This document shows positions 1 through 12,000 of a DNA stretch of 18,595 bases, in pieces. Numbering within the stretch: position 1 is the stretch's first letter; the number at the start of each line of letters is the position of its first letter. The position numbers were made by a program. The DNA comes from Thermodesulfovibrionales bacterium (GTDB lineage Bacteria > Nitrospirota > Thermodesulfovibrionia > Thermodesulfovibrionales > UBA6898): positions 1 to 18,595 of the forward strand of contig JBIOIY010000059.1 in NCBI GenBank assembly GCA_044450345.1, given 5' to 3'.

Positions 1-3000
1 CAATTTTACAAATTCTGAGCGTCTCGGTTTTCGAAAGAACATCGCTATTACAGTTCCTTACAGAAACCAGCATAGTACTGGAAATGAACGATTCCGAAAA
101 CCAGTTGAATTTATTCACTTAACTGTCGGACGCTTGTGATGTAATAGATAGTGTCACTAGCCGTTAGTTCTCTTCTCCGGGGCCGCTTCAGTCTGCAAGG
201 CCCCGACAGCCTTCCTAACCTACCGCATTTCTTCTTCCAGTTGTAGAACGTCGCCCGCTCCCTTTATATCCCCTGCCCCATATATTAGGTATAATGGATA
301 TTGTGAACCTCTTGAGGGCTCATCGTTAGCCGATTATGCAGAAAGAAACAATCACAACTGAAAGCGGGACTGTACTGCTCGTAGAAAAGGAGATCAGGGA
401 CTCTGTAGCCGAGGTCACTATCCGGGCAGATGCGGACACCACGGCTGTCCTCCACTGGGGTGTCCGCAATAGGGGAAATACTTCCTGGCAAGTCCCTCCC
501 GAACGGTCATGGCCGGAAGGAAGCCACGCCTTCGACTCCAAGTCTGTCCGGACGCCTTTCTTAAAGGAGGGCGACCAGCCTCTCATAAGGATCCGGCTTG
601 ATAGCTCCTCCGGTCTCAGTTCGGTGGATTTCGTCCTCTTTTTCCCGCTGGAGAACCAGTGGGATAATAATCGCGGGAAAAATTACCGGATCGATATCCC
701 GGCGATCAGACCTTCGACTGACGAGGCCGCCCTCGGAAACACAGAGCTCTTGGAAGTCGCAGAAGAGATAATAGAACATGAGATGAGCAAAAATTCATGG
801 ACGCTGATGCACCGTTTCAATCTTTGTTATGACCTTCTCGACAGAGTAAAGGACAACGTAGACGGCCTGGCCCTTATCTTCGTATGGCTCCGTTATTCAT
901 TTATCAGACAGCTCGACTGGCAGCGGAATTACAATACACAGCCCAGGGAACTAGGCCACGCGATGGACCGCCTCACGCTCAAACTCGCCGGCCTTTATAC
1001 GGAGGGCCCTGCAGGCGGCGGGATGATAAGGCTCGTCATGCCAACCCTCGGCAGGGGCGGCGATGCACAGCGGGTCCGTGACGAGGTCCTGAACATAATG
1101 CACCGCCATCATATCAAAGAAGTTTCGGGCCATTTCATGGAGGAGTGGCATCAGAAGCTCCACAACAACACGACTCCGGACGATATCGTGATCTGCGAGG
1201 CATATCTCGAATTCATGAGAAACAACGGCAATCTCGACAGGTTCTATAAAAAACTCAATGAGGGAGGCGTAACAAAGGAGAGGCTTGAAGGCTATGAGAG
1301 GCCGATACGGTCACACCCCGATTTCATACCTTACCTGAAGGACCCCCTGATCCGTGACTTCGAGCATTTCCTCGGCATACTGAAGGCGGTTCATACAGGC
1401 ACCGATCTGGGCACCGCCATCCACACGGCACGTTACCTTTTCGACCCCGATATGCACGCCGTGATGGACTTCATCTGGTACCATAACAACGATGCGAAGA
1501 TGCCGGTCGAACTGGCCGAAAAGATCACCGGTGCCCGCCGCTGGATCTCAAAAAGGCTGACGGGCGATGCCGGCAGGGTGCGCGACCTCCTCTTTCTCGA
1601 TATCGCACTTGAGGACTTTCTTCGCAGTATCGTTGAGAGGTGCGCCATCCCTGATCTCGGCCCGAACGAGCTCATGGCAATGACCTCCCTGGTGTTGGAA
1701 AACCTTTCTGTCACAGATGCCGATGAAGAACTTTTCAGCTGCCTCAGTCTCTGGGAGAAAATCAATAAGATGGTCTGCTTCGATCGGGAATGGTCGCTCC
1801 GCGCCAGGGCAGTAACCGACCGGATAGGCCGGTACCTCGGGGTATGCGTAGACAGGTATAACCTGCTTTTTCAGCTGAAGGCGGCATATCTGGGAGGGGC
1901 ATTCCGGGCGGATTCCTGGGCCATAAGCCTCTTTGTCGAGGAGGTGCTGCGGGGCCGTCCGGCCTTCGCCATGTCGATGCTCTTGCGACACCTAGACCCT
2001 CTTCTCAGAAAAAACGCCCGAATGGGGGACTGGCAAGTGATAAGCCCCGGGCATGCCGAAGGGGAACTCGAAGTAGTTGAGGCGTTGAAATCGATCGAGG
2101 GAAAAAGCTTCGACCGGCCTGTCGTCGTAGTGGCAGAAAAGGTTACAGGATATGAGGAGATCCCAAAAGGGGTATCTGCGATAGTGACCCCGGCAGTGGT
2201 CGACCTGCTCTCTCATATTGCGGTGCGTGCAAGAAATGCGGGTGTACTCTTCGCCACGTGTTACGATGCGGCGCGGATAGATCAATTGAAGTCCCTCAGA
2301 GGCCATGCACTGAAACTGGGAATAACCGGCAGCGATGTCGTTGCCGAGGAGGCCGCGGGAGCAGGTGTTGTCGCTGCAGTCCGGATGCAGTACTCCCACG
2401 GGGCGTTCACGAGACCAGCCTTCACGAGCTATGCAATAACGATGGATGATTTCACGGAGATAAACGTCGGCGGGAAATCGAACCACCTGAAACTCGTAAA
2501 AGGAAACCTGCCCGACTGGATCGGGATTCCGGCATCTGCGGCACTACCCTTCGGGGTGTTCGAAAAAGTCCTGTCTCAAGAAGAGAACAGGGATTGTTCA
2601 GGAAAAATCGGGGAACTCATCAGGAAGCTCGGGGACGGTCCTAATACATCCCGGGAACTGATTGAGAAAATCCGGAAGACCATACTCGATATGAAGGCCC
2701 CCCGGGAACTGGTCACGTCTCTTTATTCGGTCATGGACGCTTCGGGTATCGCACGGCCCTCGAACTGGGAGGATGCATGGACCTGCATAAAAAGCGTATG
2801 GGCCTCAAAATGGAACGAAAGGGCCTATCTCAGCCGGAAAGCAAACGGGATACCGCATGATGACCTCTTCATGGCGGTACTCATCCAAACGGTGGTCGAG
2901 GCCGACTATGGCTTTGTGGTCCATACGGTCAACCCTCTTTCCCTTGCAAAAGACGAGATATATGCCGAGGCCGTGCTCGGTCTCGGAGAGGCGCTTGTCG

Positions 3001-9000: not shown

Positions 9001-12000
9001 AAGACATTTACCGCTCACAGCACTTCTATGCCGACAGCCTTCAGAAATATCTTCAGGCCGGTGCGCCGCTTATCGACATATCTCCTGAAAACCCTCTCGA
9101 CTATATTCCTGCTCCCTTTATCTACGACCTCGCCCCCGGGCAGGGCATCGTGCTCATCACACAGAGAGACCTTCCGGCGGAAGACTGACCTCATTCATAG
9201 ATATTCGACACTGGGAAGACCCTGCGTCCTTCGCTGATTGGTCAGCAAAGACCCATCTTTGCAGGTCCCCTTTTCAAAGGCGTTTTTCTTGACTATTCGT
9301 CACGGGCTCTGCTAATCTATTCAATCCTAATTGAGGAGTCTTTATGGCCAAGATCAAGAGCACCAAAACCAAAAAAATTGTGGGCAAAACGAAAACTATG
9401 AAAACGAAATCATCGACTCTGAAGGTGAAGAAAACGCCTCCGAAGGTGAAGACAGCGCCTCCGAAGAAGGGGAAGAAAGCGGCCGTTGCCGCCAAGTCCC
9501 CGAAGAAGAAAGCCGGCCCGCCCCCGAAGAAGATTTCTCGCAAGGCACCTGTATCAGAAGCACCTGCAAAAAAATCCAATAAGACCAAGACAAAGCTATC
9601 TGCCCGCGAGGAAAAGATCCAGCAGATCAGGTCAAAACTTCTCAGGCAACGTGAGACCTTGCTGAGCGAGGCCGAAACAGCACTGAATGAACTTCCCGTC
9701 GAGATGATGTTCCCTGACCTGGGCGACCAGGCCACGGCTGAAACCGACAGGAACTTTATGCTGAGACTCCGCGGGAGAGAGCAGCGCCTTTTGAAAAAGA
9801 TCGATGAGGCAATAGACCGCATCGAGAGCGGTATATTCGGCATCTGCGACGACTGCGGAAATGAAATTGACGTGAAGCGGCTCGAGGCAAGGCCTGTGAC
9901 CACCATGTGCATCGAATGTAAGACACTCCAGGAAGAAGAAGAAAGGCTCAGGGAGCAATAAAGGCTTAGATTCAGAACGTCTTCGTCTTAAGATTCCTTT
10001 CCATAATATAACGAATATGTTCGTCCAACACCTTCGAAAGTCCTGAAACAAGGGCATCTGAAGGTTTCAAGCGGTGCAGCTTCGAAGCATCCCATCCACG
10101 CAAAGTAGTGTAAAGACTTATTGTTCCCTGGGACAGACGCAGTGAAGACGCATTGCCCTTTGCGCAGGCTTCGCAGAGGACGGTGCCGTGGGAAAGATAA
10201 AAGACGTCTCCGTCCTTACCGCACCTGCCGCATCCGCTGAGCATCGGCAGATACCCCGCAACCTCCAGCAGCCTCAATTTATAGTAAAGAGGCAGCAGAC
10301 CGGCGTCGCAATCGGTCTCCGCCGCGTGAAGGGCGTCCAGGAACAGGGAATAGATCTTCTTGTTTCGCTCCCTCTCGGGAATAAAGTGCAGCGTCAATTC
10401 TATCATCTCCGAAACCTTCAAAAAACATTTTAGTCCGCTCCTGACAGTATCGAAGGGATGGATAATGTCCGCCTGGGTAAGCCGCGGAAGCGCCGCGTCC
10501 TCCTTGCCCCAGAAAGCGATATTCGCACGGGTGAAGGGTTCGAGACTGCTTCCAAACCTGCTTTTGATCTTACGGGGACTTTTTGCAAAGGCCCTGACGA
10601 TGCCATAGTCGCTCGTCAGGTATGTTACGATGAGGTCTGCTTCTCCGAAGGGGATGGTCTTCAGGACGATGCCTTCTGTCCTGTGCAGCATCACATAATA
10701 TTTCCGAAGTCTTCAGGCTTAAGGTTCTTCAGCCATTCGTCAAGCTCATCTGCCGTCCTCGTCGCCATAATACTGTCCTCCACAAAAATCGGAGCGCTTG
10801 CCCTAAGGGCGACCGCCACCGCATCGCTCGGCCGCGAATCGATCAGGGTCTCTTTCTTGCCGTCGTTAACGTGGATAAGGGCGTAATAGGTGTTATCTAT
10901 TATCTCCGTCACCACTATCTTCGTGATCTTGACCTTCAGTCCATCAGTGATATTTTTCACAAGGTCATGGGTCAGGGGCCTTGGCGTGGCGACCTTTCCG
11001 AGCGCAAGGGCGATAGAGTCCGCCTCGGGTTTCCCGATCCAGATCGGGAGGGTGCCGGAAGCGTCCACTTCCTTCAGAAGGAGAATGTACATATTGCTCC
11101 GGGGGTCGAAGAGAAGACCCTCTACTTTCATTTCTACAAGCATCTATTTATACCCCAATTCATGTAATGCCTTTTTGTCGTCACGCCACCCCTTTTTTAC
11201 CTTCACCCATAATTGGAGAAAAACCTTTGCGTCGAGAAGTCTTTCGATTTCGATGCGGGCGAGCGTGCCTACTTCTTTCAGCATCCTGCCTTTTTCACCT
11301 ATTATTATACCCTTTTGCCCCTCTCTTTCAACATATATATTCGCACTTATGGAAACGACGCCGTCCTCCCGCTCGGTCCAGTCCTGGACTTCGACTGCAA
11401 CGGAATAGGGGATTTCCTCTGTGGTTTTCCCCATTATCTTTTCTCTTATTATCTCCGCAGCCATAAACCTCTCGACCTGGTCAGTCACAAGATCGTCCGG
11501 ATAATACTGAGGCCCCGCCGGAAGGTACTCGAGAATTTTTTCTACCACCCTGTCGGTCCCGTCCTTCTTGAGAGCAGATACCGGGATAATCTCCCTGAAG
11601 GGTAAAAGTCCCTTGTACTGACCTATGATACGAAGTATCTCAGGTTTCTTGACGCTGTCTATCTTGTTGATCAAAAGGAAAACAGGCTTGTCTATATTTT
11701 GCAGAGACTGGACAATAATGCTGTCCTTCCCGGCATCATGCCCGGGCTCCGCCACAAAGAGGATGATGTCTATTTCCTGAAGTGCCTCGCGCGCAGAATT
11801 GACCATCGCCTCTCCGAGAAGGTTCTTGGGTCTGTGCATGCCGGGCGTGTCGATGAAAATGATCTGGGCCCCCGGAAGGTTCTTGATCCCCAGTATCCTG
11901 TTTCTGGTGGTCTGAGGTCTTGCAGCAACAATCGAGACCTTCTGTCCGAGAAAGGCGTTGAGGAGAGTAGATTTCCCTACATTAGGTCTGCCGATAATCG

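Follow-up and report, generated by a model that had tools for sequence, protein, structure and literature searches.

Do some bacteria put phosphate on their storage sugar polymer in much the way that plants do? An operon in the window analysed here, an 18,595-nucleotide stretch of a contig from a soil bacterium of the order Thermodesulfovibrionales, suggests that they do. Three open reading frames (ORFs) on the + strand, 336..3392 (1018 aa), 3385..6852 (1155 aa) and 6849..9188 (779 aa), overlap, by their coordinates, by 8 bases (3385..3392) and by 4 bases of the ATGA type (6849..6852). A preliminary description had recognized here an operon with GWD-type and PWD-type dikinases, and the ORFs, Pfam searches, trees and BLASTP all bear this out. 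That core claim stands, whereas its statements on the absence of CBM45, the type of the third gene and the rarity of the PWD-type gene do not, and one domain, called Y below, had been missed. We think it reasonably probable that the operon is a cytoplasmic module, built like the starch-mobilising system of plants, with which the cell reversibly phosphorylates and breaks down its own storage alpha-glucan, and in which two barrel domains, X and Y, would serve as phosphoesterases.

Two dikinases of the plant types

Gene 1 (336..3392, + strand; 1018 aa) encodes a GWD-type alpha-glucan, water dikinase homologue, as judged from the ORF, Pfam, BLASTP and a tree. It was 40–41% identical to the GWD1 proteins of Brassica, Ricinus and Selaginella over 1037–1056 BLASTP columns, so the figure of about 40% obtained earlier from Swiss-Prot entries was reproduced with other plant sequences. 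The central helical domain (residues 151–561; 786..2018) matched two solved fragments of plant GWD in phmmer searches, 9ha9 (E 2.6e-87) and 9qvi (E 1.2e-86), again as described before. It is followed by the phosphohistidine domain (residues 566–673; 2031..2354; Pfam GWD1_pHisD, E 7.1e-37), in which comparison of motifs places the catalytic His627 (2214–2216) within LLSHIAVRARN; plant GWD1 has VLSHVSVRARN, with the same RARN ending. The ATP-grasp nucleotide-binding domain (about residues 700–1015; 2433..3380; Pfam PPDK_N, best stretch 815–889) matches PEP synthase structures and aligns with gene 2 as far as residue 1015.

Gene 1 opens with an Ig-like domain (residues 6–120; 351..695; Pfam Ig_N_CWD1, E 2.8e-21), a candidate CBM45-type glucan-binding module. 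Pfam finds the domain once here and twice in Brassica GWD1 and in Cyanophora GWD; in plant GWD1 it lies towards the N-terminus. Aligned with the plant domain, the gene 1 domain has LHWG and two more conserved Trp in common. The BLASTP alignments start at residues 11–25 of gene 1 and enter plant GWD1 at residues 355–448. The C-terminal strand of the domain also weakly matches the glycogen-binding domain of PPP1R3B (2eef, E 0.11, WD.NRGKNYRI). The earlier statement that the operon has neither CBM45 nor CBM20 thus fails for CBM45 but holds for CBM20, which gene 2 lacks.

Gene 2 (3385..6852, + strand; 1155 aa) encodes, on the same four lines of evidence, a PWD-type dikinase homologue joined to the TIM barrel X. 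Eukaryotic PWDs fetched afresh, from Chlorokybus, Cucurbita, ‘Mesen1’ and Porphyridium, were 35–38% identical to it over 899–977 BLASTP columns, in agreement with the 37% given previously. The catalytic His758 (5656–5658), again placed by motif comparison, lies in LLSHLAVRARQ within the phosphohistidine domain (residues 698–803; 5476..5793; Pfam GWD1_pHisD); eukaryotic PWD has HLSHLGVRARQ, and both end in RARQ. The ATP-grasp domain (residues 854–1153; 5944..6843; Pfam PPDK_N, E 1.2e-38) matches PEP synthase structures. Pfam searches of gene 2 and of eukaryotic PWDs also uphold the observation that eukaryotic PWD has CBM20 where gene 2 has a xylose-isomerase-like TIM barrel.

The two dikinases are, as had been reported, only 28% identical to each other (946 columns), within the 24–28% that BLASTP gave for the cross-type comparisons. 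Trees built from 63 rows by 838 columns, eukaryotic sequences included, gave a GWD clade and a PWD clade, each with SH-aLRT 100; gene 1 falls in the former and gene 2 in the latter. Trees and BLASTP therefore agree with the view that each dikinase is nearer to the plant enzyme of its own type than to the dikinase encoded beside it. Each protein has all Pfam domains of its own family, and Pfam and the motif alignment show that the phosphohistidine motif and ATP-grasp domain are kept in both, as claimed. Homology, domain order, the conservation of catalytic residues and clade membership are thereby shown.

Distribution and origin of the operon

A profile search found GWD1_pHisD in 84 of the 317 genomes of the order, the present one included; the earlier count had been 75 of 316. 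Two copies occur in 39 of these 84. Among 41 relatives (this genome counted), 13 have two matches, and in 12 of these a single contig carries both, separated by about 3.4 kb. The full PWD-like gene, previously given as present in 2 of 40 other genomes of the order, is hence not rare. A third gene lay downstream of the dikinase pair in all five annotated two-dikinase loci of relatives, in fused form in three and as separate Y and GH13 genes in two; directly after the operon, one relative has genes for a DUF4912 protein and for a GH57 branching enzyme.

Eukaryotic contamination of the metagenome bin, or a chimeric assembly in it, was considered only since plants supply the best-known relatives; nothing was found in its favour, and we reject it. 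The reading frames are intron-free, overlapping and on one strand; dksA-like, recO, era and cydAB genes lie further along the contig; GC content is even over the window (0.46–0.57); and the paired arrangement recurs in 12 of the 41 genomes searched, this one counted, including on a contig of 879 kb.

The bacterial genes might instead be secondary acquisitions from algae or protists, brought in by two separate transfers and joined into an operon later, with the same function. We regard this as rather unlikely. Unconstrained trees did group the glaucophyte GWDs with bacterial ones, leaving Viridiplantae outside. Nevertheless, forcing 12 GWD rows, counted as eukaryotic (nine by name and three unnamed ones by their place in the tree), into one clade was not rejected (p-AU 0.84), and the constrained tree had a likelihood above that of the quick free tree. 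Forcing the bacterial PWD-type rows into one clade was likewise not rejected (p-AU 0.8). Because both one-clade constraints survive the AU test, neither nesting is supported. Given the adjacency of both genes in bacteria, a single transfer of the operon outwards would take fewer events than two transfers inwards. MAGs that carry the labels of many bacterial phyla also have the PWD-type gene, and the best 120 of 1678 matches to gene 1 carried, where named, only bacterial names.

The third gene and the likely substrate

Gene 3 (6849..9188, + strand; 779 aa) encodes, according to the ORF and Pfam, domain Y followed by an enzyme of the GH13 alpha-amylase family. Its catalytic domain covers about residues 350–779 (7896..9185), with Pfam matches to hDGE_amylase (358–458) and Alpha-amylase (376–526). 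The preliminary description had assigned it to the glucanotransferase type of debranching enzyme; the hDGE_amylase match, however, spans only profile positions 14–115 of 439, and the best solved relatives are the bacterial alpha-amylases 4gkl and 3dhu, and GlgE. The enzyme may be a hydrolase, a transferase or GlgE-like. D521 (8409–8411), E550 (8496–8498) and H604-D605 (8658–8663) are invariant in a 19-sequence alignment, and by the conserved regions of GH13 they would be nucleophile, acid/base and transition-state stabiliser.

In the storage-glucan module that we favour, gene 1 would hold the glucan by its Ig-like CBM45-type domain and pass the beta-phosphate of ATP through His627 to a glucosyl residue. 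Gene 2, through His758, would then add a phosphate ester of a second kind, probably to glucan already phosphorylated by gene 1, with C6 and C3 as the presumed positions of the two. The alpha-1,4 chains loosened in this way would be cut or transferred by the GH13 domain of gene 3. Both the glucan substrate and the order of these steps are inferences of ours.

One point against this reading is that, with CBM20 missing from gene 2, the targeting of that enzyme to glucan is not accounted for. Indeed, Pfam recognizes no carbohydrate-binding module in gene 2, and this would fit a different substrate, for example a glycan of the cell envelope, a small glucoside or some other polysaccharide; the likeness to starch phosphorylation would then lie only in the enzyme family. 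The related genomes G038 and G026 each have a solitary GWD-type gene next to GT4 glycosyltransferases, in G038 also near a gene of the polysaccharide-export type, and elsewhere Y is fused with GH25 lysozyme and with CotH kinase. We nevertheless consider such a substrate improbable. Gene 1 retains the Ig-like domain of starch-binding type and also plant GWD's central domain in full; the conserved operon partner is a GH13 alpha-glucan enzyme, and a branching-enzyme gene follows the operon in the relative mentioned above. None of the three proteins has, judged by eye, an N-terminus resembling a signal peptide. Moreover, the genome has a full set of glycogen genes: profile searches gave glgA (two matches above cut-off), glgB, glgC, glgX (two matches above cut-off), five GH57 matches and phosphorylase matches.

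Barrel domains X and Y

Domain X (residues 1–292 of gene 2; 3385..4260, + strand) is a metal-binding type of TIM barrel like xylose isomerase and endonuclease IV. Pfam matched AP_endonuc_2 at residues 24–255 (E 5.8e-18), AlphaFold2 gave a confident barrel (pLDDT 92.7), and Foldseek matched it to 3wqo, UlaE and the ASFV AP endonuclease. Domain Y (residues 1–344 of gene 3; 6849..7880, + strand), the barrel absent from the earlier account of that gene, matched no Pfam family and nothing in the PDB by sequence or profile. Its model was nonetheless a confident TIM barrel (pLDDT 93.9), matched by Foldseek and VIA-align to endonuclease IV and xylose-isomerase-like barrels (Z 18–19.5), and hhalign identified it as a divergent homologue of X (probability 95–96%, E 1.8e-8 to 2.7e-9, with 241 columns at E 2.7e-9). 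H75, H109, E140, D173, H176, H202, H204, H206, E207, D213, H215 and E249 are invariant among 28 sequences of X; H63, H96, D97, E131, D159, H162, H224, H226, H228, D229, H231, D243, H244, E293 and H295 among 46 sequences of Y.

We compared these with nine residues of Escherichia coli endonuclease IV (H69, H109, E145, D179, H182, H216, D229, H231 and E261), which reportedly bind three metals. Eight of the nine had identical, invariant partners in X, and eight in Y, the ninth being offset by three residues in X and by one in Y; H75 of X paired as well once 15 endonuclease IV sequences were used as a profile. In a control, the epimerase UlaE, three of the nine are absent, and those three positions are present and invariant in both X and Y. 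A further, uncharacterised paralogue in the genome (C15:4722-5561) carries all nine, so the ligand set marks a subgroup and is not proof of an activity.

Among dikinases, X and Y are fused with the PWD type only: one or other occurs in 56 of the 150 PWD-type representatives and in none of the 240 GWD-type proteins. Single proteins comprising X, dikinase and Y exist, and Y is also fused with a low-molecular-weight phosphatase domain. As had been noted, no laforin/SEX4-type phosphatase was found beside the operon, and the search for DSPc found none anywhere in this 91%-complete genome. Our tentative proposal is that X and Y may act as phosphoesterases, or phosphatases, on glucan. They would strip the glucan-bound phosphates that block degradation of the chains, the job done in eukaryotes by SEX4, LSF2 and laforin, which have a different fold. 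Against this, a kinase and a phosphatase fused together and acting on the same ester would run a futile cycle unless regulated.

It is also conceivable, though unlikely, that the dikinases phosphorylate glucan while X and Y, instead of being phosphatases, modify sugars, as isomerase, epimerase, dehydratase or lyase, or serve as targeting modules that bind phosphate esters. Fold searches do not tell endonuclease IV from such sugar enzymes. The closest structures to X are the D-tagatose-3-epimerase-like 3wqo (MJ1311, of unknown activity) and UlaE; for Y, endonuclease IV, sugar epimerases, xylose isomerases, dehydratases and IolE all tie (Z 18–19.5). The superfamily takes in the phosphodiesterases endonuclease IV and CbiR, and its members characterised so far mostly act on sugars (PMC7733943). 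On the other hand, some 13–15 invariant residues (His, Asp or Glu) within X and Y favour catalysis over mere binding, the ligand positions missing from UlaE are invariant in both, and searches found neither another candidate phosphatase beside the operon nor DSPc in the genome. As a targeting module, X, which occupies the exact place of CBM20 in eukaryotic PWD, could recognize the phosphate added by gene 1 and thereby take over that domain's role.

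The dikinase–GH13 operon

The three genes form an operon on the + strand of the window. Gene 1 (336–3392) encodes the GWD-type dikinase of 1018 aa, gene 2 (3385–6852) the PWD-type dikinase of 1155 aa and gene 3 (6849–9188) the GH13 protein of 779 aa; these open reading frames overlap by 8 bases (genes 1 and 2) and 4 bases (genes 2 and 3). The window opens contig C59 of a 3.19 Mb genome (G000) that is 91% complete, and with only 335 bases between the contig end and gene 1, upstream neighbours in this genome lie beyond view. On the 3′ side follow genes of DksA/TraR type, recO, a bifunctional-nuclease gene, era, an aminotransferase gene, a peroxiredoxin gene, cydAB, an Rrf2 regulator gene, secG and tpiA, none of which has an evident tie to the operon. 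Promoter-like sites (4 vs 5.5 expected) and terminator-like sites (15 vs 9.9 expected) occur at chance level and are not used to set operon boundaries. Judged by eye, none of the three N-termini has the look of a signal peptide. The 20 sequencing runs listed are all DNA-type metagenomes of soil, peat and river, none of them RNA.

Gene 1 resembles plant and algal GWD1 (R1, EC 2.7.9.4). The two share an Ig_N_CWD1 domain, a central helical domain, the phosphohistidine motif LSH..VRARN and the ATP-grasp domain. Pfam places a single Ig_N_CWD1 at residues 6–120 (E 2.8e-21), the GWD1_pHisD phosphohistidine domain (pHisD) at 566–673 (E 7.1e-37) and then PPDK_N (E 3.9e-25), which also matches PEP synthase structures. 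H627 lies in LLSHIAVRARN, as compared with VLSHVSVRARN in plant GWD1, and residues 151–561 match the solved central fragments of plant GWD (9ha9, E 2.6e-87; 9qvi, E 1.2e-86). Identity by BLASTP is 40–41% to plant GWD1 over 1037–1056 columns, as against 24–28% for cross-type comparisons and 28% between genes 1 and 2. Unlike the plant enzyme, gene 1 is operon-encoded; it has no transit peptide, DUF7067 or counterpart of the first ∼350 plant residues, and it carries one Ig-like domain where plant GWD1 has two.

The preliminary description had denied the bacterial protein a CBM45 module. Gene 1 nevertheless starts with Ig_N_CWD1, a family with two matches in the N-terminal region of Brassica GWD1, of Cyanophora GWD and of the longer bacterial forms; some bacterial relatives, like plants, thus have two copies. 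The gene 1 domain aligns with the plant domain at LHWG and two more conserved Trp residues, and BLASTP picks up plant GWD1 from residues 355–448 on, close to the second Ig_N_CWD1 copy. The last strand of the gene 1 domain has a weak likeness (E 0.11) to the PPP1R3B glycogen-binding domain. Its position and the conservation of its Trp residues lead us to infer that the gene 1 domain is a candidate CBM45-type module.

Gene 2 has the same relation to PWD/GWD3 (EC 2.7.9.5), with which it shares the central domain, the motif LSHL.VRARQ and a full PPDK_N. Both pHisD (698–803) and PPDK_N (854–1153) are matched by Pfam, and H758 lies in LLSHLAVRARQ, as compared with HLSHLGVRARQ in eukaryotic PWD. Identity is 35–38% to PWDs over 899–977 columns, vs 26–28% to GWD1 (BLASTP). 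The N-terminus differs: CBM_20 is matched in all three eukaryotic PWDs scanned and is without a Pfam match in gene 2, where AP_endonuc_2 (24–255) stands instead, so that a metal TIM barrel, domain X (residues 1–292), takes the place of CBM20. Other bacterial PWD-type members carry domain Y, the barrel found at the N-terminus of gene 3 (residues 1–344), at the C-terminus, in place of X or alongside it. GWD transfers the β-phosphate of ATP to C6 of the glucosyl residues of α-glucan, and PWD phosphorylates C3 of pre-phosphorylated glucan; for genes 1 and 2 these activities are putative.

Gene 3 has a GH13 catalytic core. Pfam matches hDGE_amylase at 358–458 and Alpha-amylase at 376–526 (E 2.1e-9), leaving the first 340 residues without a match, and a set of 19 sequences shows no variation at D521, E550 and H604-D605; we take these to lie in GH13 conserved regions II–IV and to be the nucleophile, acid/base and stabiliser. 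The protein had been described as glucanotransferase-type, as in glycogen debranching enzyme, but the hDGE_amylase match extends over just 102 of the profile's 439 positions, and the nearest solved proteins (phmmer) are bacterial α-amylases and GlgE: 4gkl, an intracellular α-amylase of the Thermotoga AmyB type (1.4e-17), 3dhu (9.5e-16) and, matching no better than these two, GlgE (2e-15 to 7e-13), a maltosyltransferase whose donor is maltose-1-phosphate. Similarity to these is low, the catalytic core being what is common, and unlike all of them gene 3 carries Y at its N-terminus. No NCBIfam model matches gene 3 over its cut-off and no GlgE model is among its NCBIfam matches; the automatic JGI label for its relatives is ‘starch synthase (maltosyl-transferring)’.

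Distribution of the operon and ancestry of the dikinases

The PWD-type gene had been thought rare in the order; the pair proves to be common. In the relatives search pHisD occurs in 15 of 41 genomes (G000 and 40 others) and twice in 13; 12 of these 13 have both copies on the same contig, ∼3.4 kb apart. Order-wide, pHisD is present in 84 of 317 genomes (37 of 122 genera), with two matches in 39. In one relative the operon is directly followed by a DUF4912 gene and a GH57 branching-enzyme gene. Among the loci listed, of which 79 of 80 are metagenome-assembled genomes (MAGs), PWD-type records are labelled Nitrospirota, Desulfobacterota, Thermodesulfobacteriota, Verrucomicrobiota, Planctomycetota, Chloroflexota, Terriglobia and Myxococcales; the Nitrospirota among them take in Candidatus Sulfobium, to which the closest relatives (70–73% identity) belong. 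A locus titled ‘Desulfobacterota bacterium M19’ bears no MAG label and may stem from an isolate with the operon. A PWD-type gene is also found in a MAG labelled ‘archaeon’ (locus L090, JAIWFS010000183.1), on a contig that, at 3065 bases, is too short to judge binning. In one related genus two loci, L015 (G038:C1:667000-686999) and L020 (G026:C44), hold a GWD-type gene by itself (∼1200 aa, two Ig_N_CWD1 domains), with an HTH/TPR gene pair nearby; it has no PWD-type or GH13 neighbour, and in G038 it adjoins two GT4 glycosyltransferase genes.

A search of representative proteins with gene 2 gave 11,619 matches at E up to 1e-3, and the best 150 of these were all PWD-type. Plant and algal GWD1 sequences were collected with a 700-residue piece of gene 1, keeping long proteins only. 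Over both collections, source names identify PWDs of Cucurbita, Chlorokybus, Porphyridium, Bryopsis, Hanusia and Digyalum, GWDs of Cyanophora and Gloeochaete and, under the NCBI name ‘TIM barrel protein’, PWD-type proteins from bacterial MAGs of Fibrobacteria and Planctomycetes. Trees were built from 63 rows and 838 columns, the rows being picked from 156 after a FastTree overview; 29 of the 63 have no source name, and the sampling left out red-algal, alveolate and cryptophyte GWDs.

Gene 1 falls with eukaryotic GWD1 in a GWD clade (25 rows) and gene 2 with eukaryotic PWD in a PWD clade (38 rows), each clade having SH-aLRT 100 with LG+G4 as well as with LG+C20 PMSF. The catalytic His motif is likewise paralogue-specific, reading RARN in gene 1 and plant GWD1, and RARQ in gene 2 and PWD. 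The claim that the operon encodes counterparts of both GWD and PWD is thus borne out, each protein lying in the clade of its plant namesake with the His motif proper to it. It follows that the GWD/PWD duplication is older than the bacterial–eukaryotic split within each gene.

The direction of transfer is a different matter. In the unconstrained FastTree and quick IQ-TREE runs, eukaryotic PWDs appeared within a bacterial comb and glaucophyte GWDs beside bacteria. Better scores were obtained when all 21 bacterial-type PWD rows were constrained to one clade (lnL +33.8, p-AU 0.8) and when the 12 GWD rows taken as eukaryotic, nine of them named and three unnamed and placed by the tree, were constrained to one clade (lnL +36.6, p-AU 0.84), both groups having been chosen after the trees were seen. 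Since the constrained trees scored better, both nested topologies were rejected as evidence. The sampled data fit reciprocal monophyly in both families and give no direction. The preliminary description had assigned none either, and the addition of eukaryotes to the trees leaves that position unchanged. Because the two genes adjoin in bacteria, a single transfer of the operon out of bacteria would require fewer events than two transfers in.

TIM-barrel domains X and Y

In two relatives gene 3 is split into a protein of ∼360 residues without a Pfam match and a GH13 protein of ∼435 residues; Y is therefore an independent module. Searching with it gave 76 proteins, in which it stands before GH13 domains, behind PWD-type dikinases or alone, some of the stand-alone forms coming from Pseudonocardiales MAGs. 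Among 150 PWD-type representatives, local HMMs place an N-terminal X in 46, a C-terminal Y in 12 and both in two; they find X or Y in none of 240 GWD-type proteins. In a phylum-wide search Y was found in three of 301 evenly drawn genomes, too few for any statement on co-occurrence. Several single proteins may be recorded here. The metagenome proteins P0148 and P0166 have the order X–dikinase–Y in one chain. P0472, also from a metagenome, joins Y to a low-molecular-weight phosphatase domain, P0484 joins it to GH25 lysozyme and peptidoglycan-binding domains, and P0497 has a CotH kinase followed by Y. The stand-alone forms P0470, P0475, P0491 and similar proteins (600–650 aa, Pseudonocardiales MAGs, Actinomycetota) consist of Y and ∼300 residues without a Pfam match.

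The two domains are related. Invariant His, Asp or Glu residues number 15 in Y (46 sequences) and 13 in X (28 sequences), and hhalign aligns Y with X at a probability of 95–96% (E 1.8e-8 to 2.7e-9), the conserved residues pairing one-to-one; this comparison used domain-only slices, full alignments having matched only the common dikinase columns. AlphaFold2 predicts both with high pLDDT (Y 93.9, X 92.7), and in the models the invariant residues are at, or just past, the C-terminal ends of successive strands. No meaningful match to Y was found in the PDB by single-sequence or profile search. With the models, the top-ranking Foldseek matches are endonuclease IV for Y (5zhz, 2e-6) and MJ1311, UlaE and the ASFV AP endonuclease for X. 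In VIA-align all xylose-isomerase-like barrels tie for Y (Z 18–19.5), and the fold alone therefore has no say on the chemistry. The main rival to a phosphatase role makes X and Y modules that modify sugars or recognise phosphate.

The conserved residues resemble those of endonuclease IV. In E. coli K-12 Nfo nine positions were compared (H69, H109, E145, D179, H182, H216, D229, H231 and E261), which we take to be the metal ligands and which Hosfield and co-workers reportedly found in 1999 to hold three metal ions. In X, eight of these positions align with an identical invariant residue, and so do eight in Y, the ninth being offset by three residues in X and by one in Y; between X and Y all nine pair. 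When a profile of 15 endonuclease IV sequences is used, X H75 pairs as well. Local hhalign of endonuclease IV with Y gives E 0.0033 for the profile and 4.7e-5 for E. coli Nfo. As ligand-set control we used E. coli UlaE, an epimerase, which does not have the positions of X H109, H176 and H215. An AP_endonuc_2 paralogue of the same genome was dropped as a control, as it carries all nine positions. This third paralogue (G000:C15:4722-5561, - strand), an open reading frame of 280 aa, resembles X (hhalign probability 98%) more than it does Nfo.

Likeness to Nfo does not amount to identity. The nfo equivalog model TIGR00587 scores over its cut-off in G000 only at C58:17685-18506, outside the window, and a housekeeping nfo is present in 36 of the 41 genomes searched (G000 and 40 relatives). 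For gene 2, no nfo model is among the NCBIfam matches at E up to 0.01. X and Y are therefore not endonuclease IV, though they may work like it. Gene 2 residues 54–249 match the CbiR model NF041277 with 30.9 bits (E 1.8e-7), a weak match far under the 105-bit cut-off. What X and Y have in common with Nfo and CbiR is the TIM barrel of the AP endonuclease 2/xylose-isomerase-like superfamily; unlike Nfo, Y has a helical insert of ∼55 residues after strand 5, and unlike Nfo and CbiR both domains are fused to glucan enzymes.

Glucan metabolism and neighbouring genes

The α-glucan set of G000 is full, comprising two glgA genes, glgB, glgC, two glgX-type debranching-enzyme genes, five GH57 matches and phosphorylases. 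In eukaryotes SEX4, LSF2 and laforin remove C6 or C3 phosphate so that degradation proceeds (PMC13666283). These are dual-specificity phosphatases (DSPs), and a search for DSPc (PF00782) gave no match in G000, a genome 91% complete, while the same search was positive in nine of 14 control genomes.

The best-supported reading is a cytoplasmic module in which the dikinases would phosphorylate the cell's storage glucan in two ways and the GH13 enzyme would degrade it; the dikinase part of this reading rests on strong homology. X and Y would take the phosphate esters off the glucan, which is the role of SEX4, LSF2 and laforin. That assignment is tentative, and we put its chances at rather less than even. 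It is suggested by four considerations: the Nfo-type ligand set; a superfamily that includes the known phosphodiesterases endonuclease IV and CbiR (PMC7733943); the confinement of dikinase fusions to the PWD type, together with the GH13 fusion; and the lack of a DSP phosphatase match in G000. As metal TIM barrels, X and Y are unrelated in fold to the Cys-based DSPs SEX4, LSF2 and laforin, and as phosphatases they would differ from them in chemistry too.

Current papers, in the text available, present GWD and PWD as typical of eukaryotes that store starch, and recent reviews and a 2026 preprint regard glucan phosphorylation as eukaryotic and raise the question of how prokaryotes could do so. 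Prior notice of bacterial dikinases is slight: a bacterial GWD stands in one published tree, whose legend mentions possible LGT (PMC6260743), and automatic JGI labels name these proteins dikinases. We found no description of a bacterial GWD–PWD operon, or of the TIM-barrel fusions, in the full-text literature, a search that did not extend to subscription journals. The operon with both dikinases offers a concrete, testable answer to how prokaryotes might phosphorylate glucan, and X and Y are candidates for the missing bacterial glucan phosphatase. The operon also bears on the origin of the eukaryotic starch dikinases and is of high interest for starch and glycogen biology; its compact proteins, without introns or transit peptides, should be useful for structural work. 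A much bolder proposal, which we consider improbable, is that anaerobic bacteria, for example these Sulfobium-like Nitrospirota and the Desulfobacterota and Verrucomicrobiota with the operon genes, produce a starch-like glucan that is insoluble and in part crystalline, and mobilise it by a full phosphorylation cycle, with the endonuclease-IV-like tri-metal TIM barrels X and Y as a new phosphatase class; early eukaryotes would then have drawn both starch dikinases from the adjacent GWD and PWD genes of such an operon by one transfer.

Two other genes of the window deserve mention. The gene next after the operon (9344–9961, + strand) encodes a DksA/TraR C4 zinc-finger protein, whose counterpart in a relative (locus L016:15783-16406) has a Lys/Ala-rich N-terminal extension. 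An open reading frame of 212 aa on the - strand (9274–9912) is a low-complexity antisense shadow of the DksA/TraR gene, which also accounts for its conservation in the relative. At 13364–13975 on the - strand, an ‘AhpC-TSA’ open reading frame of 106 aa covers just the C-terminal portion of a longer peroxiredoxin. When an in-frame TGA is read as selenocysteine, a full-length peroxiredoxin results in which U62 of the translated stretch, within FTFVUATE, occupies the peroxidatic position; the protein is therefore probably a selenoprotein.
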